From Eledone cirrhosa (lineage: Eukaryota), in contig OZ024741.1 in the NCBI GenBank assembly GCA_964016885.1, forward strand, positions 114,452,001 through 114,516,000: a stretch of DNA of 64,000 bases, read 5' to 3'. The notes under the pieces were generated by a model that saw nothing but the letters and a program-made list of their open reading frames with translations, had not been told where the DNA came from and made no database searches. The position numbers and the translations under genes are program-made. Of this stretch, positions 36,001 through 64,000 are shown one piece after another (the first letter of the stretch is position 1; the number at the start of each line of letters is the position of its first letter).

Positions 36001-39000
36001 AATTATGTATGTTTATCACCCTTGTTCGGATCCTTTCTCAGCAGCGCCACAGCTCCTCGGCTCTCAGAGCTGGGAATTCTCCCGTTCTGTTGCCAGTTGC
36101 AGTAGACGTCCGCCAAGCGGCCCCTGAACAAGTCTGGCATCTGTACGTAAAGTTCATAGGGCAGACCATCCAAACCAGGCGATTTATTCCTTGTGCAGCC
36201 AGTGATTGCCTCCCGTACTTTAGCTGGGAATAGAACACTTCCCTCTCTACCCTGATTTTCCTTTTCAAATGAAATTTGAAAAAGTTAATCAGGGCATCAC
36301 CGAAGAGGTAAGTGCTCGTCTTCAGCCCTTTCAAACGTGTCCACCATACTATCTCTTTCGCCATGGCCACCAGACAGATAAAAACTGCCTGCCCTTCCCG
36401 GCTAAAGGAAGAGGGCGGGGAAATCCTCACGATGGACTCAGCTGATAGTTGGATCCGTCCTACACGTGACAGCAGGTGTTTGACATAAACCCACAAGTCA
36501 GCAATGCTTGGACACTGGACGAGTGCATGCAGGACGGCTTCGTTGCCCTGCGCGCATCTCGGACATACCCGGCTGACGGCACCTCCATCCCGAACTGGCA
36601 AAGCTCCTCGGTAGCATTGCCAGGCCAGGGATTTCTGGAAGTTGTCCATAGGCCCCGGCCCGGAAGTTCTTCCGAAGAGATTGGCTAGTTGATTTTCTTT
36701 GATGCCTTGAGTTTCCCCAAGTACGTCGCTGCTCTTCCCCTCCACTAATCCTCTATAGAACGCCAAGGTGGAGTTTCCACCGATCACATTGCCTGATTGG
36801 TCGAGGGCTGTGAGTGCCTGAAGACATTCCAGTCTCCAAGCGCTCCCTCTCGGTTTTCGCTTGACCCAGGACTGCAGCTCCGTCAAGGAGACGAGCTAGG
36901 TAAAGACGCGTCTAGCAAACGGTGACCACACTTGATCACCGTCGAGGAAGAGGTGGAGATGTCGTAGCCTGAGCGCGTGTCTGCGCATCATTAGCCACGG
37001 CATGCCCAACCCTCCACGTAGCGAGTGTTGACAGCAGATGGACCGCCTGACCATCGGAGCGCGGCCCTTCCACAAAAAGCGAAAGAGCAAACGCTCCAGC
37101 GCAGACGGGCGGGGCTTAGGACAAGGTACGACGGTCAGGCGGTAGTAGATGATGGACGCGATGTACGCGTTAGCCACCTCCGCTCAACCTTTCAGGGATA
37201 GCTTCCTCTCGGCCCATTTCTGGATGAGAGAAGCCCCCCTGCTCATCACCTCGTCCCAGTTTTTGTCCGTCTGGAGGTCCGGACCGAACCAGACCCCTAG
37301 CAATTTAACCGGTCCGTCCGTCCAGCGCCCGACGACGCTGTTGGACGGCATGGAACTTCCTCTCCAGGTGCCGAGCTGCAGGCCCACTGACTTTTCCTGG
37401 TTTATCATTGCGCCTGTCACCGCTTCGTATTCTGTTAGTGTTGTGCCGATCGCCTCGATGTATTTGGCGTTCGACACCACTACGGTGACATCGTCCGCAT
37501 ATGCTGACACGGATCTTCCGCATCCTAGTTCGCGCGGGACCCCCCTCAATGTCTCCAGTTTGTGCAGTAATGGGTCGAGAGTCAATACGTACAAGAGGGA
37601 TGAGAGGGGACATCTTTGGCATAATAATTGTTTCTAGTTTTGGCACAAGGCCAACAATTATCCCAGTGTATTACTGGTACTTTATTTTATCAAACCCGTA
37701 AGGATGAAAGGCAAAGTTAACCTCGGCAGGATTTGAACTCAGACCATAAAGGGCCGTATCTCTTTGCTGCAAAGCATGGCGTCCGACCCCCTACCGGTAC
37801 TGCCAAGAACAAAAAATCAGTGTTGCATCATATACATGTTTAATCACATATTACATGTTTCACTGCTGATCTGCTCGAGGAACAATCGATTATGTTCGTT
37901 CCTGACTCTGGAATCGAAAGCTCCTCAGATATGTGCTTTCACATGTACACTGACATCAAATATACATATATGTGTGTGTACTTTTGTGTGTCCATGCCTG
38001 TGTTTATGTTTACTGTTTGTTAATGTCTTCTAGCTTAGTGGTTTGGCAAATAGAGATTGATAAAATAACTACTAGACTTGGAAAAAGAAAAGCAAGCACT
38101 AGGCTCAATATGATCAACTAATTCACTTGAAGGTGGTGCCCCAGCATGGCCAAAGTCTAATGATTGAAACCAGTAAAAGAATATATCAGCATTTAGCACT
38201 TACCTTAAATACTTTTTGATTTTTAGGATTCATAATAAAGCGAGCAGGGTGAAGCAAAGATTGGTTTTTGTAAAAGGCATTCAGTTGAAATACTATAGGT
38301 TCTGTAACATAGTTGCCAGATATGCAGAGAAAACTTTCCCAATCGACTTTAATCAAAGAACCATTTCCAGAGGTCAATAGATGAGCTTGAAACTTTCCTT
38401 TAATTGGATTTTTATCAAGGACTATGGCCCCAGCTGACAAAACTGATTCTGTACAGCCAGCCTCCCCTGCACAGGCTTGTATTGAAAAGCTATATTTATG
38501 GCCACTTATTAAGTTCAAGTTCCTTTGGATAACATGAAACACTTTCTTCAAATGATGAGGATTCATCACTGAACATATTTTCCCGCCATTATTCAGACAC
38601 ATTCTGTCAACCAAGCTTAGTTTAAAGTGGGTCACATATTGTGAATAAGGTCCCTTTATTTCCCAGTTAGCTGTCATTTGGTGTTTTGATGTTTGGACAT
38701 TGACACTGATTGGACACAATCTCAATATTGGTTGAGGAATCTTGTTTCTGTTAGACAGTCCTGATCTGAATGCTATATGTAGTGTGGGCCTTGGATTAAG
38801 AGCAATGAAAGATCGGTACATTGTGTTATTGAAATGAACTGATTGATATGGCATAGTTTTGACCATATCACTGCTCATATTGAAATGTCCAGCAGTTTCT
38901 TTAAAGCCTATCATGTACAGATGTCCTACAACAGCATCCTGCAAGAACTCAGCCACAAACGTTTTGGTGCTGGTGTTATAATGGAATGATATTTTAATGG

Positions 39001-41964
39001 ACTCATTGTGTGAGCATCCATTCTGTCCATTGAAAATACTCATCTGCTTCTTAATTTTCTGTTGGTCAATGATAATAAATCCATCGGATGCAACAAGACG
39101 GGTCCGTGTTTGCAGTGTCATATTCACAATTGTGAAATATTTCTGGAAACTTCTAATGCCAGGATTGGATATACAGTGGCGCCTCCTATTGGTTACTGGT
39201 TGAAATGGCACCACATCTGCAGTGAATCTATTTGAACCAATTCCAATAAGCAAGTCCATACTGGGATGGAAATCTTCCAAACATATACAAGCTGAATTGA
39301 GGGTGCTGTGCATATGGATTAGTCTGTTTGATTTAGAAGCTGGATTTAAGTCTATGACTCTACCATGGTTGAATGGATGTTTCATTGGTAGCTGGAAGAA
39401 GGGAGAAGTTATTGTTGTGAAGAGACCAGCCATGTTAAAAATGTGAAGTTCAAAGAAATATGAAAGAGAAGTTTCTGGTTCTGCAATGCCAAGTTTATCA
39501 ATATTTAGCTTTATACAAGGAAGTCCTTCACTACATAAACTATGTCCAGGTGCATTTCTCCAAGGTGTCACAGCTTTTCCAGTTAAACTGTTTTCTGTGA
39601 AAATATAAAATATTATTATAAATTATTATTATAAATTATTATTAGGGTGGCTGATGGTTTGTTATGATGCATTTTTCTCAACACCATAGATAATTGATGG
39701 TACTTTTTTGAGTGTTTGAGAAAGCAAGCAACAATGTATCCTATACACACATACACACACACATGGACACAAGCACATACAGATAATATTAATAGATTCA
39801 AAAGGTCTATATACAATAATTACATATAGTCAGTAAAACCAATTATAGTATTTATAGGTTATACTTGTACAAATATACGCACATTTAAAGACTGAATTGA
39901 ATACAAAATATAACAAGAACAACAACAACAACAATAACAACAACAATAAAAATGCTTTCTTTATTAGCCACACAGAGCTCATATTAAGGAGACATTAAAG
40001 ACAGTACTGGGCGATGCAGTGTGGTTTTTTGTGTAAAATAGAATTTATAACAGGGATTAAGAAAATAAATATAAAAAAAAAAAATATAACAAATTCCCCA
40101 AAGGTGAGGAGACTCCAAGGGTTACTCGTGGAGAAAGCCCACAAAAGCCACAGTCACCCTCACCACTAGGGCAAGTGCCCTCTCCCAGTTGTCCTCCTTC
40201 AATACTACAGGCACATGTTCAGGGCAGGCCCATTCACACAGGCCATTCTTGCCTTTCTCACCCACCTTTCAATAAACTGACTGAAAAGCAGCACTTCCCT
40301 CTCCATCCTGATTTTCCTTTTCAGGTGAAACCTAAAAAAGTTAATGAGAGTGTCGCCAAAGAGGAAAGTGCTCATATTCAACCCTTTCAGATGCATCCAC
40401 CATATAACCTCTTTCGCCATGGTCACCAGACAGATAAAACTGCCTGCCCTTCCTGGTTAAAGGAGGGTGGCGGGGCAATCTTCATGATTGATTCAGCTGA
40501 TAGCCAGATCCATCTTACATGCAACAGTAGATATTCGACATAAACCCACAAGTCAGCAATACTTGGACACTGGATGAGTGTGTGCAGGACGGTCTTGTTG
40601 CCCTGTGCACATCTCAGACAGGCCCGGCTGATGGCACTTCCATGACTGTAAAGTTTATCTGAAACTGGCAATGCTCCCTGGCTGCACTGCCAGGCCAGGA
40701 ATTTCTGGAAGTTATCTATTGGCCCTGGACAAAAAGTCCTCCCAAAGAGAATAGCTAGTTGGCTTTCATCAAAACCCAGAGTTTCTCTGAGGATGTTGTT
40801 GCTCTTGCCCTCCACTAACCTTCTATAGAAAGACAATGTGGAGTTTCCCCTGATCACAAAGCCCGATTGGCAAATGGCAGTGAGCGCTTGGAGACATTTC
40901 AGTTTCCAAGCACTCCCTCTCAGTCTCTGCTTGACCTAGGACTGCAGCTCCATCAATAATAATAATAATAATAATAATGATAATAATAATAATAATAATT
41001 GTGACTGACAGTAAGGAGCCGATGCACAAAATTGTACTGAAGAAGACAATAGACCAGGGGATGTCCAAGGAGGAAATAACAACAAGGAGGAAGAGCAACC
41101 TTCATGAAAAATCCCTTCATAGTACCTTCTTTAAGAAAACTGAATTTAGAGATCCACAGACATGGAGCTGGTTAAAAAGAGGAGACCTTAAAAAAGCTAC
41201 AGAAGGAATGCTAATGGCTGCACAAGAGCAAGCCCTCAGAACGAAGTGGGTGAAACACTATATTGACAAGGAGGAGGCTAGCTCACTGTGTAGGATCTGT
41301 GGAGAGAGAGAGAGGAGACTGGCTCACATTGTATCTGAGTGTAAATACCTAGCCCAGACTCACTATAAAGGCTGGAGACATGATGTGATAGGCAGGGGGA
41401 TCCACTGGCACCTATGCAAAGTAAACAATTTACCCCATTCTGAGAAATGGTATGAGCATAAGCCAGAGTCGGTGATAGAAAACGATCAGGTGAAGGTGCT
41501 ATGGGATTTTAGGATACAGACGGACAAGAAATTAGAACACAATAGGCCTGACCTGGTGGTTTTGGACAAGGAAAAAAGATCGTGCCTGATTGCAGATGTA
41601 GCCTGCCCATTTGAGAGTGCAAGAAAATGAGCTTGAAATCCACAAGAGTGCAAGAAAAGGAGAGGGAGAAAATTAACCGATACCAGGACTTAAAGTGGGA
41701 GTTAAAAAGGATTTGGAGCTGCCATGAAATCAAGGTCGTCCCGATTGTCATAGGCGCACTAGGTACTATCTCAAAGAGTTTCCAAGGATGGTTAAAGAAG
41801 ATTAGTCCAGCCCCACTTCTTGGAACACTTCAAAAGGTATGCTTGCTTGGAACAGCAAGAACCCTCCGATACGTCCTGAATATCTGAGGCTGTAGGTAGC
41901 GGCTTGATATTCATTTCAACACACTTTCCAGTTAAATAACATCAATGACTGAGACTCAAAGAAT

Positions 41965-42022
<58 letters not shown>

Positions 42023-45000
42023 TATGCACTTTGGTATTAGTAAGTGTGGAGTCATTGTGATGAGGAGGAGTAAGTTGAGCAGAAGTAACGGAATCCAGAT
42101 ACCAACAGGTGAGATGATAAAGGAAATTGACTCTGAAGAAGGATACAAGTATTTGGGCGTTCTGGAGGCTGATGACATCAAGAACAAAAAAATGAAGGAA
42201 TTGATAAGAACTGAATACCTTCAGAGAGTAAGGAGCGTATTAAAGTCACATCTGAACAGTAGGAATGCCATAAGTGCAGTAAATTCCCGAGCTGTGTCTA
42301 TTATTAGGTACAGTGCGGGAATTCTGAGATGGAATGTTGCTGAACAAAAAGAAATGGATAGGAAGACTAGGAAGCTATTGACTATCTACAATATGTTCCA
42401 CAAGAGGAGTGATGTCGATAGACTCTACTTAAAGAGATCTGAGGGTGGAAGAGTGTATCCTACAGGTCTTATCAGCATAAAGGACTGTGTTCAGATGGAG
42501 AAAAACAACCTACACAAATACGTGACTGATAGTAAGGAGCCAATGCTCAGAACTGTACTGAAGGAGGGGACAATAGGCCAGGGGATGTCCAAGGAGGAAA
42601 TAACATCAAGGAGAAAGAGCAGCCTTCAGGAAAAATCCCTTCATAGTACCTTCTTTGAGAAAACTGAATTTAGAGATCCACAGACATGGAACTGGTTGAA
42701 AAGAGGAGACCTTAAAAAGGCTACAGAAGGAGTGTTAATGGCTGCGCAGGAGCAGGCCCTCAAAACGAAGTGGTTGAAACACCACATTTACAAGGAGGAG
42801 GCTAGCCCACTGTGCAGGATCTGTGGAGAGAGAGAGGAGACTGTGGCTCACATTGTATCCGAGTGTAAACACCTAGCCCAGACTCACTATAAGGGCTGGA
42901 GACATGATGTGATGGGCAGGGTGATCCACTGGCACCTATGCAAAGTAAACAATTTACCACATTCTGAGAAGTGGTATGAGCATAAACCAGAGGCGGTGAT
43001 AGAAAACGATCAGGTGAAGGTGCTGTGGGATTTTAGGATACAGACGGACAAGAAACTGGAACACAATAGACCTGACCTGGTGGTTTGGACAAAGAAAAAA
43101 GATTGTGCCTGATTGTAGATATAGCCTGCCCATTCGACACGAGAGTACAAGAGAAGGAGAGGGAGAAAATTAACCGATACCAGGACTTAAAATGGGAGGT
43201 AAAAAGGATTTGGAACTGCCATGAAGTCAAAGTGATCCCGATTGTCATAGGCGCACTAGGGACTATCTCAAAAAGTTTCCAGGGATGGTTAAAGAAAATT
43301 GGCCCCTTCACGCTTTTTGGAACGCTTCAAAAGGCATGCTTGCTTGGAACAGCAAGAACCCTCCGATACGTCCTGAATATCTGAGGCTGCAGGTAGTGGC
43401 TTGATATTCATTTCAACAAACTTTCCAGTTAACTAACATTAATGACTGAGACTCAAAGAGTAATAACAATAATAATAATAATAATGATAATTGTTTCTAC
43501 TTTAGGCACAAGGCCAGCATAACCCAGTACATTACTGGTACTTTATTTTATCGACCCCGTAAGGATGAAAGGCAAAGTTAACCTTAATAATGATAATGGT
43601 TTCTTTATTGGCCACAAGGGCTAACATGAAGAAAAACATTACAGACGGCACAGAATGGTACAGGACAATACAAAGTCTATCCTGTAACTTATTTTATCAA
43701 TCTCTGATGGTTGAACAACTAAGTACCAGATTTTTAAAAAGTACTGTTGTCAATATGATCGACTATATCTCTTCAATGCAGTGTCCAAGCAAGATCACAA
43801 TCTAATGACTGAAACCAGTAAAAGAATATAATATTAGATGAAAAAAATCAAAGAACTTACTTATTTGGTAACTGATAAGAAGATCAGTATTTTCTTCTGG
43901 GTCATAAAAGCTGTCATTTTGCCATACAATGTTGATAATGTCATTGTTCAAGCTTATATTTAAGCCTCCATTATAAACTGGAGGAGACTGGTCATAAACT
44001 ATGGGCCCAAGAACTGTTGTTTCACTATTCATAGCTTTGTTCACTGATTGAATGAAAATATAAAATCTGTCTCCTGGCTTAACACCCAGTCTATGCTTCT
44101 GAAATCGAGTCTTTTGGATAGTTGACGTGTATCCTACAATGTCAGGATGCTGTTTTAACTGAAGACTGCTACTTATGCCAACAAAAAAGTCAAGAATCTC
44201 GCTCTCATCTTCTGTATATTTCCAAGACAAGTGAACATTGTCAGAAGGAATACCAATTAGATTATTCTGTGATGGAGGAGTAAAATTGGTTGAACAAATG
44301 TTTGTTTTTAACATAGTGTCTCTAATCCTCTCCTTCAATATTGGTAGAATTGAATTGGAAGCAAAATTGGTACAGTTTTGGAAGCAAGATTCAGATGTGG
44401 TTAAACGCTTTTTGGTTAAATCAAAATTTATTCTCCACATTTTTCCATTATAACAAGCAATAGTTTCTTGTGTTTTAGCTCCAGCCAGTATAACATCCTT
44501 CAATTTAGGTGGGGTTTTATCATACTCCACTCCGTCTGAACATGCTGCATTAGATGGTTCCATAGCATAGTTGTAAGCAATAACTGTTGAAAAGTACTTT
44601 CCAGTTTTTCTAAGTGAAAACTGAGCAGAGGTTCTTGTTGTGTTTATAATGGTATTTGAGATATTACACAAAGAACATCGACTGGTCAGTTCTGATATGG
44701 TCAAACATCGTGAGGCAACCCCAACAACATAATAATATATATCAGATTCATGATCAACAAATCCTTCCCAGTTCACAGTTAGATTTTCACTTCCTGTGAA
44801 ATCTAAATCAGGGAATGCTTCTCTCCCTTCTTTAACAGAACCTGTGCTAGGTGAAGATTCATCCAAAACTATGTCCAGGTGTTCCTCATTGAAAAGTCCA
44901 GCCATATTTTCAACTCGGATGGCAGCAAAATAGCGTCGATTATGTTGACCTTTGTGAGTTTTTTTAGCTATAAGGGCATTGAGAGTTAGTGTAAAGTTCT

Positions 45001-46152
45001 TCATTTGACAAGGTCCATAGGATGGACAGTAACATGGGATTCCAGGGGGACATGAAACCTAGAAACAGAAAGTTTAAAAGGCAAGACTTCATAATAAAAC
45101 AGCATTTTAGAAAGTTATAGCAATGCAAATGAAATATTAAACATTATATAACAATAAAAAAACATTACATATTAAAAATAGCAATAATATCAAAGGTGTT
45201 GAAATGTGACCTTGGAAATATTTAATTGGTCATTTATATTTTGGGAAATATCCCCTTGTCAAATGATTTAAGGAACTAAGGCAAAATTTAAACAAATAAG
45301 ATTTCATAAAAAAAAAACGTAATACACATTAATCATTGTGTCAATAGTGACTTATGTTCGATAGAGAGCAAAAAAGAACTAAAGAAAAATAAATTTTATT
45401 TGAGAGTAATGAATCTAAATTTGGAGTGTCGGATGCCAATGTTTATTTTAAAATCATTAAAGAAAAATGAAAAAAATAATTATTTGAAAATCTTACAGAG
45501 TTGCCAAGTTTAACCACTGGAAGTGAGCCCATGCCAATATCATTGGAACCATCTTTTGTTCCCAAAATCCACTGGATCTTTTTCAAACCACTGTGACGAT
45601 CAAAAGCATCAAGACTGACAATCATAGATGATAAATCAGAAGAATTATGCATATACAACTGCTGATGCTGGTCTTTGGTCAATGAAAACTCTTCAGTAGA
45701 AGGAGCACTTCGATCAGTAAATATAGTTATATTTTTAGATAATGTGTGGTTCATGATATCTATTGCAGTCACCCATATGCTCAGAGAATCTCCATCCTGC
45801 ACAATATTTTGGAAACACTGTGTTTGGTTATTCTTTGAAGAAACCAAGTTTTCTCTAGAAATATTTCCATCATTCACTTGGAATTGATAAGTGAATTGAA
45901 TTATTCCTTGTATGTTTTTGGTGCCATTGATGTTGAGAAGCCCAGAAGTATGTTCATACTCTTCTGAAATAATATAAATAAAACATTTAGAATGACAATG
46001 GCAGGTAGTAGATGGTTAAACCTATTACTTTGACTGTCCAGCCTAGGGTAGAAACTACTCTCTTTTCTCTTTTATTTTTTTTGTTAAGTACTATCCAGCC
46101 CATGCTAGCATGATTGACATAAAAATACACATGAATGCACATAGGGATATAT

Positions 46153-50760: not shown

Positions 50761-50761
50761 C

Positions 50762-50807
<46 letters not shown>

Positions 50808-52928
50808 TTTCTTTATTAACCACAAGGGTTTACATAAAGTAGACATTAAGGACAGTGCAGGACAATACAGGACGGTACAAATGGGCATTTCTGCGTGTAA
50901 AAAACAAAAACAGAGGATGTAACAAAAAAATAACAATGAAAAAATTCCTCAATAGGGGGAGACTTCGGAGGGACATTTGTGGAGAAAGCCCAGTAAAAGG
51001 CCACAGTGACCCTGACCACCAAGGCAAGTGCCCTCTCCCAGTTTTCCACCTTTAATTTACAGATATATACTCAGAGTAGGCCCATTCACTCGGGCCATTC
51101 TTGCTTCTCTCACCCATCTTTCAACAAAATGCTGGGAAGAGAGCACTTCCCTCTCTACTCTGATTGTCCTTTTCAAATAAAATTTGAAAAAGTCAATCAG
51201 TGCATCACCGAAGAGGTAAGTGCTCGTCTTCAGCCCTTTCAAACGTGTCCACCATATTATCTCTTTCGCCATGGCCACCAGACAGATAAAAACTGCCTGC
51301 CCTTCCCGGCTAAAGGAGGAGGGCGGGGCAATCCTCACGATGGACTCAGATAATAGCCGGATCCGTCCTACACGCGACAGCAGGTGTTCGACATAAACCC
51401 ACAAGTTAGCAATTTTCGGACACTGGACGAGTGCGTGCAGGACGGTTTCGTCGCCATGCGCGCATCTCGGACATGCCCGGCTGACGGCACCTCCATGCCT
51501 ATAGAGTTTATCCCGAACTGGCAAGGCTCCTCGGTAGCACTGCCCGGCCAGAGATTTCTAGAAGTTGTCCATAGGCCCCGGCCCGAAAGTCCTTCCGAAG
51601 AGATTGGCTAGTTGATTTTCGTCGACGCCTAGAGTTTCCCCAAGTACGTCGTCACACTTCCCCTCCACTAATCCTCTATAGAACGCCGAGGTGGAGTTTC
51701 CACCGATCACATTGCCCGATTGGTCGAGGGATGTGAGCGCCTGAAGACATTCCAGTCTCCAGGCGCTCCCTCTCGGTCTTCGCTTGACTCTGGACTGCAG
51801 TTCCGTCAAGGAGACGAGCTGGGGAAAAACGTGTCTAGCAAACGGCTACCACACCTGATCACCGTCGAGGAAGAGGTGGAGATGTCATAGCCTGAGCGCG
51901 TGCCGGCGCATCATCAGCCACGGCATGCACAGCCCTCCACGTAGCGGGTGTTGACAACAGATGGTCCGCCTGCCATCGGAGCGCGTCCCTTCCACAAAAA
52001 GCGAAAGAGCAAACGCTCCAGCGCAGTCAGGCGAGGCTTAGGACAAGGTACGACGGTCAGGCGGTAGCAGATGACAGACGCGATGTACGCGTTAGCCACC
52101 TCCGTTCGACCTTTCAGGGATAGCTTCCCCTCCGCCCATTTCTGGGTGAGAGAAGCCACCCTGCTCGCCACCTCGTCCCAGTTTTTGTCCGTTTGGAGGT
52201 CCGGACCGAACCAGACCCCTAGCAATTTAACCGGTCCGTCCGTCCAGCGTCCGACGACGCTGTTGGACGGCATGGACCTGCCTCTCCAGGTGCCGAGCTG
52301 CAGGCCCACTGACTTTTCCTGGTTGATCATTGCGCGTGTCACCGCTTCGTATTCTCTTAGTGTAGTGCCGATCGCCTCGATGTGTTTGGCGTTCGACACC
52401 ACTACGGTGACATCGTCCGCATATGCTGAGACGGATCTTCCGCATCCTAGTTCGCGCGGGACGCCCCTCAACGTCTCCAGTTTGTGCAGTAATGGCTCGA
52501 GAATCAATACGTACAAGAGGGACGAGAGGGGACATCCTTGTCGGACCGAGCGCATGATGTTGAACGGTTCCGAAAGGTTACCGTTCACTCTCACCACAGA
52601 GCTGATGTCGCTGTGCATGGCAGCGATCCAGCCTCTGAAGACGGGCCCAAAGCCAGCCTCCCTCAGGACTGCCGCTAGGTAACGATGGTCGACCCTATCG
52701 AAAGCTTTCGACTGATCTAAATTGATCAAAGACCCACCCGTGCCAGGTTCCCTAGCTACCCTCTCTACGATGTATCGCATCAGGTGGAGGTTGTCGTGGA
52801 TGGATCTGTCGGGAATGGCGCATGTCTGCGCCTCTCCCACCAGACCACCAACGACAAGTGCCAACCTCTTTGCTAGCACCTTGGCCAAAATCTTGAACTC
52901 TGTGTTTAGCAGAGTTATGGGCTTGAAA

Positions 52929-54473
52929 TTATCTGTTCTCCCCCTTGTTCGGATCCTTTCTAAGCAGTGCCACTGCTCCTCGGCTCACAGAGCTGGGAAT
53001 TCTCCCGTTCTGTTGCCAGTTGCAGTAGACGTCCGCCAAGAGGCCTCCGAACAAGTCTGGCATCAGTACGTAAAGTTCATAGGGAAGACCATCCAAACCA
53101 GGAGATTTACCCGTTGTGCAGCCAGTCATTGCCTCCCGTACTTCAGCGGCTGTTATCGGATTTTCGCAACACTCCGCCTCAGTGGCCGAGAGCCGCGGCA
53201 GTCCGTCGAGGTAGACACTAAAGTCCATCCCTCGACCCGGCCCACCGCTGCCCCCGAACAGCTGAGCGAAGTGTCGCTGAAAAGCTTCACACATTTGCCC
53301 GGGATCGAGTAGCATGCGCCCATCGTGGTCCACTAAAGACCGGATCGTGGCTTTGTTGCCACGACGCGCCTCCGCCACTCGGGCCCATTGAACGGCTTTC
53401 GTCCCCTCGTGTCTGAGAGCACACACCCTAGCTCTGACAACGCAGCCTTCGTGCTTTGCATTGAAGAATTGGTCAAGGGCCAATTTCGCCTCAAGCACGT
53501 CGGTCGCGATGCCTTTGCTAAGCGCCTCGTCTAATTTTCTAACTAGTTCTCCCTCTGCTCTATTTTTCTCTATTGCTAAAGCCTTACTAAACTTAATGGA
53601 TTCTATTCTAATCGCTCTTTTCAGAGCAAACCACCACTTGTTGTTGACGATGGCCCCCGTCAACGCCCGCTTAACTAGTTCGCTAATCCGGTCTCTGTAG
53701 GCCTTGCGCGCTGGTAAGGACGCGTTTAGCTTCCAGTAGCCGGGCCCTCGTCTATGAAGCCTATCTAAGTCAAGCACACAGATCACGAATTTGTGGTCCG
53801 TGTAGCTGACTATCTTGAATTGTGGACAGCCTATGCTAGACCTATCTATTTCCCTACAAAATACTCTATCTAGATATGATCTGGATGATCCTATGCGATT
53901 TGTCCAAGTCCACATTGGCACATTCGGGAAATCCAATCGGTACCTGTCAGACAGTTCAAAACGCCTGAGCAGGTTGGTGAGGCTCTTGCACCCTCCGCCC
54001 CTATCCGCTAATACCACACAGTCCCAGCATGCATCTAAGATCCCATTCCAGTCGCCCACTAACACTAAAGAGCGGGACGTTCCAAGAAAGGTCTCCAGAC
54101 GCCGGAAGAAATCATGCCGCCCTGCTCCTGTCGGGGCATAGACGGCCACTAGCCTGAAAGCTTGCCCGTCTCCGCTGGTCACGTCCAGCACCACCAACTT
54201 ACCCTCTGGGTCCAGGAAGATGGCCCGTATGGCGAGATCCAAAGCTCTCCGAAAAAGCACAGCAACTCCTCCCTCCGATCCAGGACGGCTGGGAGATGCG
54301 TACACATCGTAGCCGCCGAAGATCGGTGCGAAGGTCCGTGCTTCGGAGATTCTGGTCTCGCTGATGGCCACTACATCTATGTTTAGTGAGCTGAGGTCGT
54401 TGAGCAGGTGACCCTGCTTCCATGACGACCCCAAGCCACGCGCATTTATGCTGCCTATTCTGAGTGAGGTCAT
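52929..54473 (-). pseudogene. Tx1 ORF2 N-terminal part: APE-type endonuclease and linker
   Basis: Exo/endo/phosphatase motifs, GYWKLN, KSPGLDGLPYE; continues by frameshift into RT ORF 51914..52888. Confidence 0.88.
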
Positions 54474-54508
54474 GTTTAAAATGGAGTGGAAAAGATGGGA
54501 AAGACCAC

Positions 54509-55585
54509 TTACCGTACTTTTCGTAGAGGAAGGATGGTTTCTCCATCCCTTTTCACTTGATCGTCTGGTGAAGGGACCGTTGAATCGTCCCTTCGGCTGG
54601 TCGTCGACTCTTCTATGAGTATGTCCGAATATACTCTCCGGTTGAGAGTCCCTCCTAGGTCTCTGAAATCACCAACTGCGTTGGGGAATTTCGTTTTAAT
54701 GTTTGTGTATTGTTTCTGTGCTATTTTTAGCAGTCTTATGTTCGTTGGCGTTTTGATTGGTGCTGGAATTATGTAGTCGTACTGTGAAATGTCTGTGTGT
54801 TCAATTATGTAAGTCATTAGTTTCTTGTTGTGTGTATTTATTGCCGTGCATTTGTTTTTCTGGGGGAGGGGTGTGGTTCTGCTATTTTCTTGTCGTTGTT
54901 GCTGGGTGTGTGTGTTTTGTTGTTGTGCTTGCGATGGTGGTGTTGAAGGTGTTGTTGTTGTTGACGGTGGGGTAGTCGCCGGTGGTGATGGTGGTGCTAG
55001 TGTGGGTGGTGATGGTGTTGGTGGTGTTGCTGCTGTGAGTCTCTTTGCAGTAGCCTTTACCCTTTTTTCATTTCTTTCCTCCCTTTTCGAAGGCGACGAT
55101 GCGCTGCTTCTGCGTTTGTGCCTTCTTACGACCTTTTGCCATCCCTCTCCCACCTCACACTCCATGTCTGATTCTGTGAGGTCGGGGAGGGGTACCATCC
55201 CCATTCTTTCATTTGTTGTTGTTGGTGATGTTTGCACTGGAGTCTCTGTTGCAGCTGCATTTGGTATTGCTGTTGTTGTTGTTAATACTTCCACTGCTGC
55301 TGCTGTTTTTGATTTCCGTGGCGTGGGTATGGGTGCCACGGACCTATCGTTCCTGGTTGCCGCTTGTCCTGTTGCTGGTAGCCGTGGAGCCGGTTTCGGA
55401 AGGAGGGGGGTTTTCTCCTTTCTCAGGGTCTTCTCGTTGCAGAAGGCCCTGAGGTGAGTCTTCGATCCACAGCGAAAGCATTTCGGGCGTTTGCCCTCAA
55501 CACTTATGGGCAGTTGAGTGCCGTTATCGAAGTCTATCACATCCGGGATAGCTTCGATGCACTCCTGGTTGGTTTGGATTAACAT
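54509..55585 (-). pseudogene. Tx1 ORF1 C-terminal part (gag-like CCHC knuckle)
   Basis: CX2CX4HX4C motif, GWQKVVRR, Pro/Thr-rich tail; ends 36 nt before the ORF2 ATG. Confidence 0.8.
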
Positions 55586-56816
55586 CTCAATGGAGGTGCC
55601 GACCCAATCTTCTTTTACTTTTTTCTGTACTTGCAGTACAGTTGTTTTATCCTCGATTCCGACGAGGACAGACGCGGCTAGCCAAGAAGGGGGGGGGGAC
55701 GACGACGTGGATCAGTTTGACCCTCACAATTTTTTGCCCGCAGTAGGAGGGCACCAACACCATTTCCTCGCTCCTTAGGGTCACTAAAGATTGAGCCTTT
55801 GCCTCCTGGGGTGTGACAAAAAGTACGTCTACGGTGGCATATTTCTTGCCTCGGGTGATGTGCGTTTTCCGCTGCCACACAGACCCCAAGGCTTTTTGTA
55901 TTTGAGCCTCTGTGGATCTTTCAACCCTACGGGTTTTGTACTTACTGGACGGTACGTGACCGTACAGTGCTGTTGGGTTTCGAAAAATTTTTCGGCTGCC
56001 TTGCAGATTGCTCCGTGTCCAGTTTTTGTCACCATCTTCTTCGCTTCCTCTAATTCCTCATTTGTTATGAGGATGGCTTCCAGGTTCTTTGCGATACCTG
56101 CAAACGAGATTGGTTTTTCTTTGCTGCTGTTGTTGTTGTTGTTGTTGTCAGAGCTGTTGTTACTTTTGTTGTTGCTGCAGGTATTACGACTACTGCCGCC
56201 GCTGTTGCTGTGGTTGTTGTTGTTGTTGCTGCTGCTGCTGTTGGTGTTGCTGCTAATGCTGTTGTTGTTTATGCTGCTGCTGATGCTGTTGCGGCTGCTA
56301 CTGTTGTTTTCCTTGTCACTGTTGCTGCTGTTATTACGGCTGCTACTGCTATTATTCCTGACGAATGAAATGGGTTTTCGTATTTCCCGCACACCTTTTT
56401 CGTTGTTGTCGTCGTCGTGGAGAAATCTTGCACGCTTTGCACGTGATTTTTCTTTTTTGGCGTCGCTTGCGAAAGAGAAGGGAGGGAGAGAGACAATCTT
56501 CTCTCTGCTGTAGTGACAATTGAGGAAGAAGAAGACGGAATGAGTGGCAGTGATCTATGAAAATTCTTTTTCGTAGCCATGTTATTTTTTTGTTTAAAAT
56601 AAATATTGAGCACAAAACCCCAATAAGCGGTTATTTGACCCCGAAGGGCCAAATAACAGGCAGAAAGACCCCTCTCACGAGGAGGAGGGTGTTTTTGTCT
56701 ATAAGTTGGTTAAAGTTTTAAACAATTTACAATTGTTATAGCGGTCAAAATTTACAATACCTTACAGAGCCGAGCCTCCGTCAACCATAGCATTCAATAA
56801 TAATAATAATAATAAT

Positions 56817-57722
56817 GATTTCTTTATTAACCACAAGGGTTTACATAAAGTAGACATTAAGGACAGTGCAGGACAATACAGGACGGTACAAATGGGCATT
56901 TCTGCGTGTAAAAAACAAAAACAGAGGATGTAACAAAAAAATAACAATGAAAAAATTCCTCAATAGGGGGAGACTTCGGAGGGACATTTGTGGAGAAAGC
57001 CCAGTAAAAGGCCACAGTGACCCTGACCACCAAGGCAAGTGCCCTCTCCCAGTTTTCCACCTTTAATTTACAGATATATACTCAGAGTAGGCCCATTCAC
57101 TCGGGCCATTCTTGCTTCTCTCACCCATCTTTCAACAAAATACTGGGAAGAGAGCACTTCCCTCTCTACTCTGATTGTCCTTTTCAAATAAAATTTGAAA
57201 AAGTCAATCAGGGCATCACCGAAGAGGTAAGTGCTCGTCTTCAGCCCTTTCAAACGTGTCCACCATATTATCTCTTTCGCCATGGCCACCAGACAGATAA
57301 AAACTGCCTGCCTTTCCCGGCTAAAGGAGGAGGGCGGGGCAATCCTCACGATGGACTCAGATAATAGCCGGATCCGTCCTACACGCGACAGCAGGTGTTC
57401 GACATAAACCCACAAGTCAGCAATTTCCGGACACTGGACGAGTGCGTGCAGGACGGTTTCGTCGCCATGCGCGCATCTCGGACATGCCCGGCTGACGGCA
57501 CCTCCATGCCTATAGAGTTTATCCCGAACTGGCAAGGCTCCTCGGTAGCACTGCCCGGCCAGAGATTTCTAGAAGTTGTCCATAGGCCCCGGCCCGAAAG
57601 TCCTTCCGAAGAGATTGGCTAGTTGATTTTCGTCGACGCCTAGAGTTTCCCCAAGTACGTCGTCACTCTTCCCCTCCACTAATCCTCTATAGAACGCCGA
57701 GGTGGAGTTTCCACCGATCACA
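56817..57722 (-). mobile_element. 5'-truncated Tx1 copy in tandem with the full-length element
   Basis: Nearly identical to 50806-51711; (TTA)n on both sides. Confidence 0.92.
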
Positions 57723-57751
57723 TAATAATAATAATAATAATACTAATAATA

Positions 57752-57998
57752 AACTGCCATGAAATCAAGGTCGTCCCGATTGTCATAGGCGCACTAGGTA
57801 CTATCTCAAAGAGTTTCCAAGGATGGTTAAAGAAGATTAGTCCAGCTCCGCTTTTTGGAACACTTCAAATGGCATGCTTGCTGGGAACAGTAAGAACCCT
57901 CCGATACATCCTGATTATTTGAGGCTGTAGGTAGCGGTTTGATATTCATTTTAACAAACTCCCCAGTTAAATAACATCAATGACTGACACTCAAAGAA
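57752..57998 (+). mobile_element. Short 3' fragment of R4/Dong-type family B
   Basis: Matches 41720-41965; (TAA)n on both sides. Confidence 0.85.
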
Positions 57999-58018
57999 CA
58001 ATAATAATAACAATAATG

Positions 58019-58052
<34 letters not shown>

Positions 58053-58063
58053 TAATAATAATA

Positions 58064-61000
58064 AAAACCCCGTGACCAAGAAATACCGGGATGGCGGCCG
58101 GCGGGGAATAGCCATGTCTCTAGGGGAGAACGACCCCTCTAGTCTTGGTTGACACTCGTTCTAGAAGTGGTAACACGAAAAGATTACCCCTTGGCGGATA
58201 AGGATAAAACGCGACAAAATAAAGTAGATGTCTAATGATGAAATCTCATACCGGATCGGCCGTCACCCGGGTAAAAAAGGGCCGCGTCCCTCAGAGAGGA
58301 ACCAGACTGGGGTCGAAAAATCAGCTAATGGTTCAAACCTTCCCATCACTTCGGAGCTGGAGACCTCCCATAACCGGAATACTCCTACTGTTGGCCCTCC
58401 ATGCTCACCACCAAGAAATCCAAAGAAAAAGAGAGAAAAATGGTCAAGGGAAGATAATAAAGAAGTCCTTGAGGCTTTCTACACTGCCATGTACTACCCA
58501 TCAAATACATCGAATACAGAGCAAACATATATCAACTGGAAAAAGAAACATCCCGAAAACAGAGGCTATATTGACAGTAACAAACTAGCCAATATACGAA
58601 GAAATATTGTAAGAAAAAAGTTACTAACTGATATAGAAATTGATCAGATCAAGCTAGTAGCACAAAGTCAGCGAAGGGAAAATGAAGCATGTGTCAGTGA
58701 AAACGAGGTAAACTGTAACACTTCGAATCCCAGAGTTGGGGCGGAATCACTGGCAACAGAACAAATTAAAGAAAGGAGCGAAAAAGTGGAGGGAGTGCAT
58801 GCTCAGGATGAAACTCCAAATGAAAATAATGAGATCGTAAATGATAAAGAAATGAATGAGAATGAACTTGCCAACTTGAAGGATGAAATTATGATCGAAT
58901 GGATGAAAATGAAAGAATCTGACATGGGGCAACGAGACACCCTCCCTAAGATCCAGAACTCCAAACAGAACCAAAAGATAATACACAAGACTAACATAAT
59001 TCTCAAAAACATTATCATCACAAACAAAATAAACATTACTGACTTAAATCATCTCTATTATGCATCGGCTAAAGTCACCACTCACTTATGTGGAGTGAAG
59101 ATGAAAAAACAAAGGAATTCCCACAAGAAATCTACTTGGCAAGATAACATCAATCGCCAAATAAACCTTCTCCGATCTGACATAGAAATTTTAACAAACT
59201 ATAAAGTAGGTGAACATGTTAAACAAACTAAACTTAGAAAATTGAAAAAAAAGTACAGTATAAGATCAACATGTGACATAGACATGCTGATAGAAACAAT
59301 CAAGCAAAAAGTGTCGGCCAAAGCTGCTCGTATAAGGCGCTTTGAAAAACGATCTAGATTCTATAAGGACAATAATATGTTCAAAAACAACCAAAGAAAC
59401 TTCTACAGAAAAATTGGTAAGTCAACAATAACTGCTAAATCAATACCACCCAAGGAGGAAGTGCAAGAATTCTGGGAAAAGATCTGGGCCGAAGAAAAAG
59501 TTCATAACATACATGCCCCATGGATAGACAGACAAATGAAAGAAACAGCTCACCTTGAGGAACAAACATGGGAAAATATAACAGTTGAACAGCTGCGCTT
59601 GGCTCTAAGAAAAACCAGCAAATGGAAATCCCCAGGAAAAGACAAAATACAAAACTTTTGGATAAATGCCTTCACAGAGTCTCATGAGCTGTTAGCCCAA
59701 CTTTACAATGAAATAGTTAAGGAGCCAGAAAAGATACCATCATGGCTAGTTAACGGCATTACATTCCTGCTACCGAAGAATGATGAGACAAACAATCCCA
59801 AAAATTACAGACCGATAACCTGCTTGACCACAATGTATAAAATTTTAACATCAGTCCTAACTGAATACACATATGACCACCTGATAACAAATGACCTATT
59901 TCCCATTGAGCAGAAAGGGTGTAAACGAGGCTCATATGGCTGTAAGGATCAGCTTCTGGTTAACAAAATGATACTGGAAGATTGTCATAATAGACACAAA
60001 AACCTATCGATTGCTTGGATAGATTATAAAAAAGCATTTGATAGTTTGCCACACAGTTGGATTGAAAAATGTTTAGAGATTTTCAAAATATCCCCCGTTG
60101 TCAGGAGGTTTTTGTCATTCAGTATGAGGACATGGAGAACGACACTCCTTTTGAATAGTGAAACAAAATCACTGGAAGCTGGAGAAGTTAACATTAATTG
60201 TGGAATTTTTCAGGGTGACTCTTTATCACCGCTTTTATTCTGCATCGCACTTATACCATTAAGTAAAATGCTCAATGAAACAAAACATGGATATAGAGTC
60301 TATGACAAAACCATTAATCACCTGTTCTACATGGATGACCTGAAACTATTTGCAAAAAATGATGAACAATTGCAAGGGCTATTATCCACTGTGAAGCAGT
60401 TCAGTGATGACATTAAAATGGAGTTTGGACTGGATAAATGCGCCAAAGCAACGTTCACCAGAGGAAAGCTGCTGAAGAGTTCAGACATTAATCTTGATCG
60501 GGGGAATGTGATAAGAGAGCTTGATCAAGAACAAACTTACAAATATCTAGGTGTTTGTGAAGGAGACGGAATCAAGCACTCGACAATGAGGGAAAGGATA
60601 AGGAAGGAATGTTACCGCAGAGTCAGAGCAATCTTAAGAACGGAATTGAATGCAAGGAATAGGATCGATGCCATAAACACGCTTGCCATACCAGTAGTAA
60701 CCTACAGTTACAATGTCATCAACTGGTCAAGCACAGAGATCCGTAGGCTCGATACAAAAATCCGAAAATTCTTAACCATGCACAGAATGCATCACCCTAA
60801 GGCAGACATAGATAGAATATATCTCCCTAGGAAAGAAGGAGGACGTGGGTTAATCCAGTTAGACATTGCGTTGAAAACTGCAACAATTGGATTATCCACA
60901 TATCTAAGGGAATCACATGATTGGATGATCAAACTCGTTTTGAAACACGAAAGCACCAAAAGATCATATTCCATTACAAAAGATGCACAAAGATACAGTA

Positions 61001-62018
61001 ATGGACTACAAATTTCAGAAGTCCCATTTACTGCTGAAATGGAAAACACAGAAAAAGCAAAGCAGGTAAAAGTAACTGCAAAGAAAGAACTGCTACAGAA
61101 ACTGGCTAAGAAATGGCAAGAAAAGCCTCTGTATGGAAAATACCCAGAGCGAGCTAACAATCCTGATGTTGACAAAACTTTAACCCATCAGTGGTTGGCA
61201 TCCTCTGGACTGAAATCGGAGACTGAAGGACTGATTATATCCGCACAAGATCAGTGTCTGCCAACAAAAAATTACCAAGCCAACATAATAAAAAATGGGT
61301 GCAGCCCATTATGCCGTGTATGCAAAAAACAACCAGAGACCATTGACCATATAATTTCAATGTGCAGTCCTATAGCTCCAACCGAATACCTAAACAGGCA
61401 TGACAGAGCTGCACAATACATACATTGGATAATGTGTAAGCATTTTGACCTGCCCCATCAAAAGAATTGGTGGGAGCATCAACCACCTCCCATACTTGTA
61501 AAAGATCACATCTCAATCTTGTGGAACTTTAGCATCCAAACAGACCGAAAAATAGATGCAAATAGACCTGATATAATATTGAAGGACTTTCAAAGTAGGG
61601 TATGCCTGCTAATTGATATGTCTGTTCCAATAGACAAGAATGTATCTATAAAAACATTTGAAAAATTGAGCAAGTATAAGGACCTGGAGATAGAAATTGG
61701 AAAAATGTGGAAATTGAGAACTAAAACAATACCAGTGGTTGTAGGCGCTCTGGGAATGATACCTAAGGGGTCTAACGACTACTTATCGCAAATCCCAGGA
61801 AACCCGCGTATAGGAGAAATACAAAAGATAGTACTAATGGGAACTGCCCATATACTAAGGAAGATCCTGTCAATATAAGTACATCACAAGTCTAAACACT
61901 AAGGATGCATGTGTGAATATGTATGTTCTTTCTTGAACATGGCGGACCTTGTTGTCTCTTGAGGTCACTGGTTGTGACTTGGTGATAACTCGTATAAACA
62001 TAAAGCAAGATAAATGCA
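58064..62018 (+). mobile_element. Apparently full-length R4/Dong-clade non-LTR retrotransposon (family A) in (TAA)n
   Basis: Single long ORF, about 165-nt 5' UTR, about 140-nt 3' UTR, (TAA)n on both sides. Confidence 0.92.
58228..61878 (+). CDS. R4/Dong-type polyprotein: RT + CCHC + restriction-like endonuclease (intact 1216 aa)
   Basis: WKSPGKD, NYRPITCL, WIDYKKAFDS, GIFQGDSLSPLLF, YMDD, CRVC..ETIDHIISMC, RHD, RPDII..IDMSVP..K..KY. Confidence 0.95.
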   Translation: MSNDEISYRIGRHPGKKGPRPSERNQTGVEKSANGSNLPITSELETSHNRNTPTVGPPCSPPRNPKKKREKWSREDNKEVLEAFYTAMYYPSNTSNTEQTYINWKKKHPENRGYIDSNKLANIRRNIVRKKLLTDIEIDQIKLVAQSQRRENEACVSENEVNCNTSNPRVGAESLATEQIKERSEKVEGVHAQDETPNENNEIVNDKEMNENELANLKDEIMIEWMKMKESDMGQRDTLPKIQNSKQNQKIIHKTNIILKNIIITNKINITDLNHLYYASAKVTTHLCGVKMKKQRNSHKKSTWQDNINRQINLLRSDIEILTNYKVGEHVKQTKLRKLKKKYSIRSTCDIDMLIETIKQKVSAKAARIRRFEKRSRFYKDNNMFKNNQRNFYRKIGKSTITAKSIPPKEEVQEFWEKIWAEEKVHNIHAPWIDRQMKETAHLEEQTWENITVEQLRLALRKTSKWKSPGKDKIQNFWINAFTESHELLAQLYNEIVKEPEKIPSWLVNGITFLLPKNDETNNPKNYRPITCLTTMYKILTSVLTEYTYDHLITNDLFPIEQKGCKRGSYGCKDQLLVNKMILEDCHNRHKNLSIAWIDYKKAFDSLPHSWIEKCLEIFKISPVVRRFLSFSMRTWRTTLLLNSETKSLEAGEVNINCGIFQGDSLSPLLFCIALIPLSKMLNETKHGYRVYDKTINHLFYMDDLKLFAKNDEQLQGLLSTVKQFSDDIKMEFGLDKCAKATFTRGKLLKSSDINLDRGNVIRELDQEQTYKYLGVCEGDGIKHSTMRERIRKECYRRVRAILRTELNARNRIDAINTLAIPVVTYSYNVINWSSTEIRRLDTKIRKFLTMHRMHHPKADIDRIYLPRKEGGRGLIQLDIALKTATIGLSTYLRESHDWMIKLVLKHESTKRSYSITKDAQRYSNGLQISEVPFTAEMENTEKAKQVKVTAKKELLQKLAKKWQEKPLYGKYPERANNPDVDKTLTHQWLASSGLKSETEGLIISAQDQCLPTKNYQANIIKNGCSPLCRVCKKQPETIDHIISMCSPIAPTEYLNRHDRAAQYIHWIMCKHFDLPHQKNWWEHQPPPILVKDHISILWNFSIQTDRKIDANRPDIILKDFQSRVCLLIDMSVPIDKNVSIKTFEKLSKYKDLEIEIGKMWKLRTKTIPVVVGALGMIPKGSNDYLSQIPGNPRIGEIQKIVLMGTAHILRKILSI

Positions 62019-62453
62019 AATAATAATAATAATAAGAAGAAGACACACATGGTGGATAGAAGGTCGAGAAATCGCTCCCGTAAGTTTTGATTTTTTTAAC
62101 ATATTTAAATCAATTGTGAAATAACAATTCTTAGTACAAATGTTGCATAAGACATCCAGCCTGAGTCCCAAAAAATTCGGATCCACAATATATTGTTATA
62201 TCGCTCAAATATTCAATTTTGTATTATACATTTTATATTCAAAAAGAAAATGGTTATAAATGGAAGGAAACCCCCTCTGTCTACACTATATAGAACAGCC
62301 AAATAACAGCAATTTCACCAACATCAGAAACTAGATACACCACCTACCCCATCACCCCTCTGTGTACACTAAACACAACAGCCCGATAACGGCAATTTCA
62401 CCACCACCACCACCAATCTCAGCATAATAATAATAATTACTATTACTATTGCC

Positions 62454-63620
62454 TCAAGTTTTAGTTTTAACAAAATGTTTAATTCCAATAAATGTCAACA
62501 CATACACGCGACTAACGATAATTTCACTAAAGATAATTTCACCACCAATACCACCACCACTACCACGATGAAAACTCTGGTCAAGTCGACTCAAATTTCT
62601 ACTCCAACTTCAACACCATCACTACAGTAATACGACCACATCACCACCACCGCTGCCTCACTATCGCTACCGCCGCTATTCTCTCACACTACCTCCTGCT
62701 AGTTGCTGCTAGCACAGCGCCGCCATCGGCGCCGCTGCCTCAATATCACTACCGCCGCTATTCTCTCCCACTACCCCCTGTTACATTGTAGAATTCTCAC
62801 TAAAAGAGGAAAACATCGAAATATATAAATAGACTGAATTGATGACCCGATCAAAATAAATATAAAAAAAAAACAAAAAAAACAATAATCAAAATCAAGT
62901 TTTAGTTTTAACAAAATGTTTAATTCCAATATTATGGGTAAATGTCAACGCATATACGCGACTAACGATAATTTCACTAAAGATAATTTCACCACCAATA
63001 CCACCACCACTACCACGATAAAAACTCTGGTCAAGTCGACTCAAATTTCTACTCCAACTTCAACACCATCACTACAGTAATACGACCACATCACCACCAC
63101 CGCTGCCTCACTATCGCTACCGCCACTATTCTCTCCCACTACCTTCTGCTAGTTGCTGCTAGCACAGCACCGCCACCGCCGCCGCTGCCTCAATATCACT
63201 ACCGCCGCTATTCTCTCCTGCTACCCCCTGCTACATTGTAGAATTCTCACTAAAAGAGGAAAACATCGAAATATATAAATAGACTGAATTGATGACCCGA
63301 TCAAAAAAAAAACAACAAAAAAACAATAATCAAAATCAAGTTTTAGTTTTAACAAAGTAATACGACCACATCACCACCACCGCTTCCTCACTATCGCTAC
63401 CGCCGCTATTCCCTCCCACTACCTCCTGCTAGTTGCTGCTAGCACAGCACCCCCCCCCCCCCGCCGCTGCCTCAGTATCACTACCGCTGCTATTCTCTCC
63501 CGCTATCCGCTGCTACATTGTAGAATTCCCACTAAAAGAGGAAAACATCAAAATATATAAATAGACTGAATTGATGACCCGGTCAAAATAAAAAAAAACA
63601 ACAAAAATCAAAATCAAAGC
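62454..63620. repeat. Tandem repeat of ~440-bp unit (two full copies plus one internally deleted copy)
   Basis: tcaagttttagttttaacaaa at about 62454, 62895 and 63335; each unit has two internal ccgctgcctca..atc.ctaccgccgctattct subrepeats. Confidence 0.9.
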
Positions 63621-63884
63621 AGCACAGCAACAACGAAAAACGTAAAGGAAATAAAAATAAAGAGAAAAACAAACGGACGGACAGAGAAGGGAAGGGAAAA
63701 ACTAAGTCAGACATTCAAACACTACATTACAATGAAACTTATGCTTATTCATTTTTGGGATTTTTTCTGCCTGTTTGTTTGGGTTAGTCTACAGCGTGAT
63801 AATGCCACACAAAAGTCACGTGGAGTGACGAAACCACCGGAGACAAGTAATTCACCGGTGGTTATGTAACCATACATTCGCCAA

Positions 63885-64000
63885 TCTATATATATAAAGC
63901 TGTGGTTGTCTGTCTGTCTATCGATTTTTGGCACACATCTCCTCTTAGAATCTCTGACGGAATTGCACCGAAATTGCTATACTTGTACATTGAGCCCTAG
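63885..64000 (+). mobile_element. Probable 5' end of a non-autonomous Helitron-like element
   Basis: A|TC start (TCTATATATATAAAG) followed by (GTCT)n and gacggaattgcaccgaaatt; the 3' end is outside the window. Confidence 0.45.

Follow-up and report, generated by a model that had tools for sequence, protein, structure and literature searches.

Tx1-like and R4/Dong-like LINEs on opposite strands of (ATT)n repeats in Eledone cirrhosa

A stack of LINEs joined by TAA repeats

We analysed a 64,000-nucleotide stretch of the genome of Eledone cirrhosa (assembly GCA_964016885.1, contig OZ024741.1, positions 114,452,001 to 114,516,000 of the forward strand), referred to here as the window, in which long interspersed elements (LINEs) of two kinds, Tx1-like and R4/Dong-like, are stacked between runs of (TAA)n. 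A first-pass annotation made from the sequence alone had described four such elements at window positions 50763-62035 as a repeat hotspot and had proposed a candidate (TTA)n-targeting Tx1 family. When checked on the window sequence, the order of the elements, their strands and the TAA run at each junction were as it had described them.

50765..50805, no strand: (TAA)13, the 3' tail or target remnant of the full-length Tx1-like copy and the left edge of the stack
50806..56795, minus: Tx1-like (L1-group) LINE with an A-type head (see below) and both ends, 5990 nt
56796..56816, no strand: (TAA)7, serving as tail to the truncated copy and as 5' flank to the full one, in register ATT|G
56817..57723, minus: 5'-truncated Tx1-like copy of 907 nt that matches the 3' end of the full copy at 99.3% identity
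57722..57752, no strand: (TAA)7-CT-(TAA)3, separating the head-to-head 5'-truncated ends of Tx1 and R4-B
57752..58003, plus: 3' fragment of R4-B, a second R4/Dong-like family with ~38% amino-acid identity to R4-A
58000..58062, no strand: imperfect (TAA)n, tail of R4-B and 5' flank of R4-A
58065..62018, plus: R4-A, an R4/Dong-like element with reverse transcriptase (RT) and a C-terminal restriction-like endonuclease (RLE) region; open reading frame (ORF) at 58228-61878
62019..62035, no strand: (TAA)5, R4-A tail that also flanks the following R4 element on its 5' side
62036..64000, plus: leader of an additional R4 element, with 85% likeness to that of R4-A across 459 nt and with internal duplications

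All R4 pieces of the window lie opposite to the Tx1-like ones, as had been proposed. The stack was drawn too short, since it continues past 62035 into the further R4 leader and then beyond the window, where an R4-B body ends ~2.9 kb past the last position and is followed by TAA, a diverged Tx1 piece on the minus strand and two short interspersed elements (SINEs).

The Tx1-like copy that had been called full-length (56795 to 50806, minus strand) does have both ends, and its 3' end carries a hairpin with a CUUGU loop and an AATAAA. However, its ORF2, which starts at 54473 and comprises an apurinic/apyrimidinic-type endonuclease (APE; Exo_endo_phos), RT (RVT_1) and a zinc finger (zf-RVT), is frameshifted twice (near 52934 and 51972), and its ORF1, with a CCHC knuckle, is split across two frames. 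The same label does not fit the R4-A copy, because it starts ~985 nt inside the 5' end found in each of four other loci covering the region (L109, L200, L243 and L248); the corresponding 5' leader is missing, though the ORF of 1216 aa is intact.

The two Tx1-like copies of the block are 99.3% identical over 907 nt, against at best 98.2% to 103 other copies, and they have in common 10 variants that each occur in no more than 2 of those 103. Because of these shared rare variants the two are not independent witnesses, and the truncated copy is likely a local copy of its full neighbour, made by duplication, conversion or local re-insertion. Locus L003 was considered as a further carrier of the variants and rejected, as it has 0 of the 10. 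Breakpoints of Tx1-like copies recur at element positions 5072-5124 (window 57723, and L003, L026, L027, L033, L133, L228 and L337), a possible truncation hotspot.

The Tx1-like family and its 5' junctions

Genome-wide counts were made as exact-pattern matches in the 3.0-Gb genome. The 3'-end patterns of the Tx1-like family matched 3534 and 2668 times, i.e. at least 6,200 3' ends. Many copies have both ORFs open (in L148 an intact ORF2 of 1139 aa, in L175 an ORF1 frame of 713 residues containing CX2CX4HX4C). No difference over 907 nt separates the members of several dispersed pairs; the family is young and has thousands of copies. Two different 5' halves, each consisting of an untranslated region and ORF1, occur with one and the same ORF2, to which both connect at a single fixed point, and we call them heads A (818 exact matches) and B (1642). 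An example of head B lies at L128:768-2878 (oriented), with 12 more among 100 copies, and its ATT|G junction is retained; a third head type was seen in L189 and perhaps L314. In a public sequencing run of a second organism, compared with window 49500-64000, the Tx1-like and R4-A families were present at 90-99% likeness, and this locus was not.

Tx1-type elements have a separate ORF1 with a CCHC knuckle. The family described here has such an ORF1, together with an N-terminal APE, RT and a C-terminal zinc motif in ORF2, and subfamilies of only 70-74% identity have retained the hairpin region of the endonuclease. The best match of ORF2 among solved structures is human L1 ORF2 (E 1e-52). The nearest named relative of the RT is a protein of Argonauta hians (74% identity), followed by turtle proteins at ~38-43% that bear no family names; homologue searches with the protein gave no named Tx1 reference (Tx1L, Keno, Kibi, Koshi) among the matches. 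Its architecture, not a tree, suggests placement in the Tx1 clade, with another branch of the L1 group as the alternative.

The 5' junctions of this family are highly uniform in full-length copies. Directly ahead of 785 of the 818 exact A heads stands TTATTATT, in one register, and ATT precedes 30 of 30 sampled B heads. Because the transcript of a full-length copy could carry a repeat leader, we also mapped both ends of individual copies and scored truncated ones. The copies came from the first 100 listed 3' ends and 60 further places, all within the first 85 Mb of one contig; the second batch comprised 60 of 61 places picked for having no exact head nearby and is therefore enriched for truncated copies. 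Five of 33 candidates were dropped from the first batch for internal rearrangements or other heads (L143, L157, L189, L193 and L208), along with 13 B-type copies, and seven of 29 from the second, where L314, L315, L324, L328 and L335 were rearranged or head-bearing and L323 and L341 duplicated a counted event. A junction was scored as TTA when a run of at least 8 nt lay within 25 nt upstream, a condition that holds for 1.1% (plus) and 2.0% (minus) of window positions.

TTA stood at the 5' end of all 85 sampled full-length copies (54/54 and 31/31). Among the 50 independent truncated copies it was found in 23, and TAA in none, which against the background of 1.1-2.0% is a 20- to 40-fold enrichment. 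Truncated copies cannot carry an RNA leader, so these 23 count for targeting. (TTC)n was found at only two of the 50 junctions (L134 and L319). The proposal of a (TTA)n-targeting Tx1 family is thus supported by A heads, B heads and full-length copies alike. The first-pass annotation had also said what would speak against it, namely that most copies lack 5' (TTA)n; this is not so for full-length copies, and truncated copies are divided about equally. Under Kojima's rule, as given in PMC4494074, a family is specific when the target repeat lies in >20% of flanks, and both the heads (785/818) and the truncated copies (23/50) exceed this. The target is (ATT)n, different from the (TC)n and (TTC)n of Kibi and Koshi.

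Within the window, the statement that all four Tx1 insertions have TTA on the 5' side and a 3' run is right for the four larger ones (5' ends at 37618, with about three units, 40950, 56795 and 57723); each has an ATT run on its 3' side, imperfect ATT/GTT at 39945. A fifth insertion, a ~50-nt 3' fragment at 43611-43661, had been overlooked and is without 5' TTA. In L208, L324 and L335 the first 8-26 nt of the head are fused to far-downstream sequence with TTA still ahead, and short inversions like those produced by L1 twin priming were seen at the 5' ends of L343 (13 nt) and L356 (~84 nt), in both cases with TTA preceding the inverted segment.

The registers are ATT|G at full-length 5' ends and ATC|ATT at 3' ends. 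The 5' run of full-length copies has a floor of ~15-18 nt (minimum 15 among 59 heads; at least 17 in 51 of 54). Target duplications can be recognised at L022, where 18 nt including nine non-repeat bases are duplicated, and at L178/L179, where the duplicated stretch is an imperfect repeat and measures up to 42 nt.

Neighbours, R4 elements and the SINE

R4-A has the features of an R4/Dong element: one ORF in which RT precedes a CCHC and a PD-(D/E)xK-type restriction-like endonuclease motif, no APE, and (TAA)n flanking either end as read in the sense strand. RVT_1 is the sole domain match of its protein, the CX2C..H..C and PD..D motifs were found by eye, and the best solved matches are R2 proteins (residues 449-1099). 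The window copy is ~99.5% identical to other copies, and the best 30 R4-A 3' ends are 98-100% identical. TAA follows every R4 3' end scored (R4-A 58/58, R4-B 72/72; together 130/130) and lies within ~30 nt of 10 of 11 truncated R4-A 5' ends, judged by eye. The leader of R4-A (L243:2049-3037) contains, at leader positions ~854-920, a stretch like a SINE 3' end (CUUGU hairpin and ATT) on the R4 sense strand, i.e. with the usual polarity reversed. Duplications of 450 and 282 nt within the R4 leader at window 62454-63618 recur in L057 and L115.

The SINE had been counted among the sharers of the landing pad. Of 34 near-complete SINEs in the genome sample, 19 are bordered by TTA at the 5' end and 20 at the 3' end, and none has TAA; within 50763-62035, however, there is no SINE. 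A and B boxes were seen by eye, and ARAGORN reported no tRNA. Tx1 and SINE ends have in common a hairpin of 3-4 pairs with a CUUGU loop and an ATT tail. Among 245 Tx1-type and 108 SINE-type ends, 92-98% can form the first three pairs, and A-T/G-C and C-G/G-C swaps occur. This count considered only ends with the CTTGT loop, separated Tx1 from SINE crudely, so that some ends are mislabelled, and included related copies. This common hairpin with swapped pairs suggests a LINE-SINE partnership and points to mobilisation of the SINE by the Tx1-like LINE. A further repeat, seen as 26 ends at several loci, has the same CUUGU hairpin with another stem and a T-rich spacer before ATT.

Stacking is the usual setting of the Tx1-like family. 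Another element lies directly upstream of 48 of 54 full-length A copies (a Tx1 tail in 24, the 5' end of an opposite-facing R4 in 22, a SINE tail in 2; other sequence in 6) and upstream of 25 of 31 full-length copies of the second batch. Downstream of 100 copies we found an R4 tail in 29, Tx1 in 24, a SINE in 12, an opposite-facing Tx1 in 1 and other sequence in 34. Two apparent R4 neighbours in the same orientation were SINE tails matching the SINE-like stretch of the R4-A leader and therefore do not count as exceptions to polarity. In 24 tandem pairs, neighbours resembled each other no more closely than random copies do; in none was the upstream copy its neighbour's best match, and five of these upstream copies belonged to older subfamilies (75-79% identity). 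Arrays thus grow by independent insertion into existing repeats, and the proposed self-renewing landing pad gains support from the upstream neighbours and from these unlike pairs. Template jumping or tandem duplication was rejected on the 24 pairs as a general source of arrays, and may account for the window pair. The word hotspot overstated the case: the system is found throughout the genome, and the block is a typical stack of it and not a special locus, nor is it unusual for the Tx1-like family.

Two related stacks lie elsewhere in the window.

33706..37806, minus: SINE, Tx1 with an internal duplication (33880-37618) and SINE, joined by TTA
39946..43661: Tx1, R4-B and SINE; a diverged Tx1 at 39946-40950 (minus) and R4-B at 41001-41968 and 42022-43465 (plus), with a SINE piece and a short Tx1 end (minus)

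The window also holds a minisatellite with a 20-nt unit (21349-21811). Two long open frames with weak fibronectin-III-like matches (43802-45058 and 6357-7646, both minus) are probably exons of a large minus-strand host gene, and the TAA stacks may lie in its introns. At 13535-15490 (plus) and 7914-8928, RT is followed by a weak PHD-finger match, 83% alike between the two places; this is likely a different kind of retroelement, unlinked to the TAA runs.

Origin of the stacks and comparison with known systems

Taken together, we put a probability of roughly 0.8 on the reading that young Tx1-like LINEs insert into (ATT)n and R4/Dong-like LINEs into the same repeats in the opposite direction, with nicks on opposite strands and insertions that renew their own sites. 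The opposite facing of Tx1 and R4 is likely to arise because the two endonucleases nick opposite strands: the AP-type endonuclease of Tx1 would nick the (TAA)n strand and the restriction-like endonuclease of Dong the (TTA)n strand. Each insertion would duplicate a few repeat units and so leave a new landing site on both sides. Tx1 would make its first nick in (TAA)n between T and A (T^A), and to judge from the junction registers, ATC|ATT and ATT|G, the second nick would likewise lie at a T^A step. The transcript may run past AAUAAA into (AUU)k, which would pair with the freed DNA end and prime reverse transcription, so that no poly(A) would be copied. A second nick in the (TTA)n strand, at a distance of ~15-21 nt, would give a duplication of 5-7 units, and truncated cDNAs may often join further upstream by microhomology, deleting the 5' run. 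The tRNA-type SINE would be mobilised by the Tx1 protein through the common 3' hairpin with its CUUGU loop.

Several observations weigh against this reading. Twenty-seven of the 50 truncated copies have no TTA at the 5' junction. In seven of these the 5' end meets that of a truncated R4, head to head; in one it is joined to a Tx1 end that has lost its tail; L356 has TTA just ahead of its 84-nt 5' inversion; four lie in flanks rich in (TTC)n or (CTA)n, judged by eye, and the remainder in other DNA, several in unique sequence. Such copies imply that the specificity is not strict or that deletions are common. No empty site was found in public sequencing runs, in which contigs break at repeats and no joint across an element is listed. 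RNA runs were not among the matches listed, a negative that carries no information on expression. The window's own tandem pair is an exception to the independence of neighbours, and the conditions on the hairpin count given above belong here as well. Finally, 5' runs are longer with head B than with head A (median 37.5 nt, n=26, against 24.5 nt, n=54; p=0.01; tails p=0.34); together with the near-perfect register of full-length copies this fits a partly RNA-encoded (AUU)n leader, and the longer B-head runs leave room for such a leader or for an effect of age.

These last points bear on an explanation in which the RNA, and not the enzyme, chooses the target: a relaxed, AT-preferring endonuclease would nick at many places, of which only those that pair with the (AUU)n end of the transcript would prime efficiently, and a 5' (AUU)n leader, arising from transcription start in the upstream repeat, would make the ATT|G junction. 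We consider it unlikely, though it deserves serious attention, since it predicts a genomic pattern identical to that of enzyme-led targeting. It would account for the difference between full-length copies, with 96% single-register 5' junctions, and truncated ones, with 46% and mixed registers, for a B-head effect on the 5' run despite near-identical ORF2, and for an AATAAA just before the tail with no poly(A) seen after it. It also has precedents, as target sequence upstream in R2 RNA leads to uniform 5' junctions (PMC3774820) and an AGG end on SART1 RNA improves the accuracy of priming (PMC7265360). However, in L178/L179 the last base of the element joins an imperfect GTT-ATT target directly, and that target is duplicated upstream; the endonuclease hairpin is conserved in diverged subfamilies; and swapping the endonucleases of TRAS1 and SART1 shifts the target (PMC7265360). 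The 5' ends at six loci matched no Rfam ribozyme family at E<=1, a search whose models may miss HDV-like ribozymes.

It is very improbable that the head-to-head junctions reflect co-insertion, in which Tx1 and R4 particles would nick opposite strands simultaneously and their cDNAs fuse, a two-element form of twin priming. The seven truncated Tx1 copies that abut truncated R4 (0-3 nt overlap or a 14-nt gap) suggest it, as does the presence of R4 5' ends upstream of 22 of 54 full-length copies against R4 tails downstream of only 10 of 54. We rejected it because TTA-less junctions are not in surplus beside R4 (7/14, against 20/36 beside other neighbours; Fisher p=0.76), and R4 is not commoner upstream of truncated copies (9/28) than of full-length ones (22/54). 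Least credible of all is an element without targeting that itself makes both TTA runs, as tail and leader, with stacks formed later by unequal crossing-over or read-through: the window pair with its 10 common variants, three runs of 3-5 copies at ~6-7 kb spacing among 100 places and the missing run in half of the truncated copies would fit, but neighbours are unrelated R4 and SINE ends of fixed polarity, truncated copies are enriched for TTA and never have TAA, L022 and L178/L179 bear marked duplications, and neither the neighbours nor the tandem pairs (none of the 24 closer than random pairs) can be explained by an element-made leader, whereas insertion into the repeats of earlier elements explains both.

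Building on targeted insertion from opposite strands, we lean somewhat towards a broader view. A previously undescribed (ATT)n-specific Tx1 lineage and Dong, whose endonuclease folds are unrelated, may have come by convergence to use the two opposite strands of a single repeat, such that the first nick of each is the second-strand site of the other. Cross-fed landing pads, a partner SINE and swaps of the 5' half with the target kept would then make this system a major source of stacks several kilobases long, and of TAA repeats, in the genomes of octopods. Octopus L1-Tx1 and Dong-R4 elements are described as abundant and recently active, with 13 and 5 active families in O. vulgaris (PMC13282606, PMC8967140), and Dong-R4 and L1-Tx1 as among the most active LINEs of octopus-type genomes (PMC13282606). 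The word 'target' is absent from the main text of PMC13282606, and the available text of PMC8967140 gives no target for these families. A literature search with Repbase, Dfam, Kojima and Fujiwara 2004 and the Fig. 3 labels and supplements of PMC4494074 outside its scope found no ATT or TTA target for an element of Tx1 type. With at least 6,200 exact 3' ends, many intact ORFs and near-identical R4-A copies, the system offers a mechanism for the clustered build-up of LINEs and SINEs in such genomes, and an AT-only triplet joins the known targets of APE-type site-specific LINEs.

Microsatellite targeting itself is known. Families of the Tx1 clade occupy (TC)n (Kibi), (TTC)n (Koshi) and, in crocodilians, (TTCC)n/(TTTC)n (PMC4494074, PMC3812793), and the present family is an (ATT)n target variant of these microsatellite-specific elements. 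Like them it is an APE-type LINE of the L1 group that lies in a simple repeat with fixed polarity and has two ORFs with the order APE, RT and zinc motif. It differs from Kibi and Koshi in that the repeat is AT-only and not TC-rich and that the target is common to an RLE element; the likeness is judged from architecture.

For the R4-type partners the target is essentially that of Dong (Bombyx mori), DongAg and DongBg, TAA-specific elements of the R4 clade (PMC3812793, PMC3774820); Dong is placed among APE-type elements in PMC3812793, and R4 is an RLE clade in PMC4640811. Like Dong, R4-A and R4-B have a single ORF, an RT nearest to R2 among solved structures and TAA at both ends in the sense strand. 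Here several families with a ~1-kb leader coexist. A 5' HDV-like ribozyme is a feature by which R4/Dong elements can be assessed (PMC3774820); the Rfam models, which may miss such ribozymes, gave no match in these leaders.

The SINE recalls SINEU, which accompanies Tx1-Mar (PMC4494074), and the stringent SINE/LINE pairs that have a common 3' stem-loop (PMC3747384). In both SINEU and the present case the SINE has the target, polarity and 3' end of a Tx1-type LINE; here a tRNA-type head is combined with a microsatellite, there an snRNA head with a Mariner target.

Finally, TRAS1 and SART1 of Bombyx mori use one repeat in opposite directions and nick opposite strands (PMC7265360). Both of those are APE elements of telomeric (TTAGG)n, whereas here an APE and an RLE element meet in a dispersed microsatellite with thousands of sites. 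Such a naturally occurring pair, in which unrelated nucleases would read the two strands of a single three-letter repeat, makes the choice of target by enzyme or by RNA directly testable.

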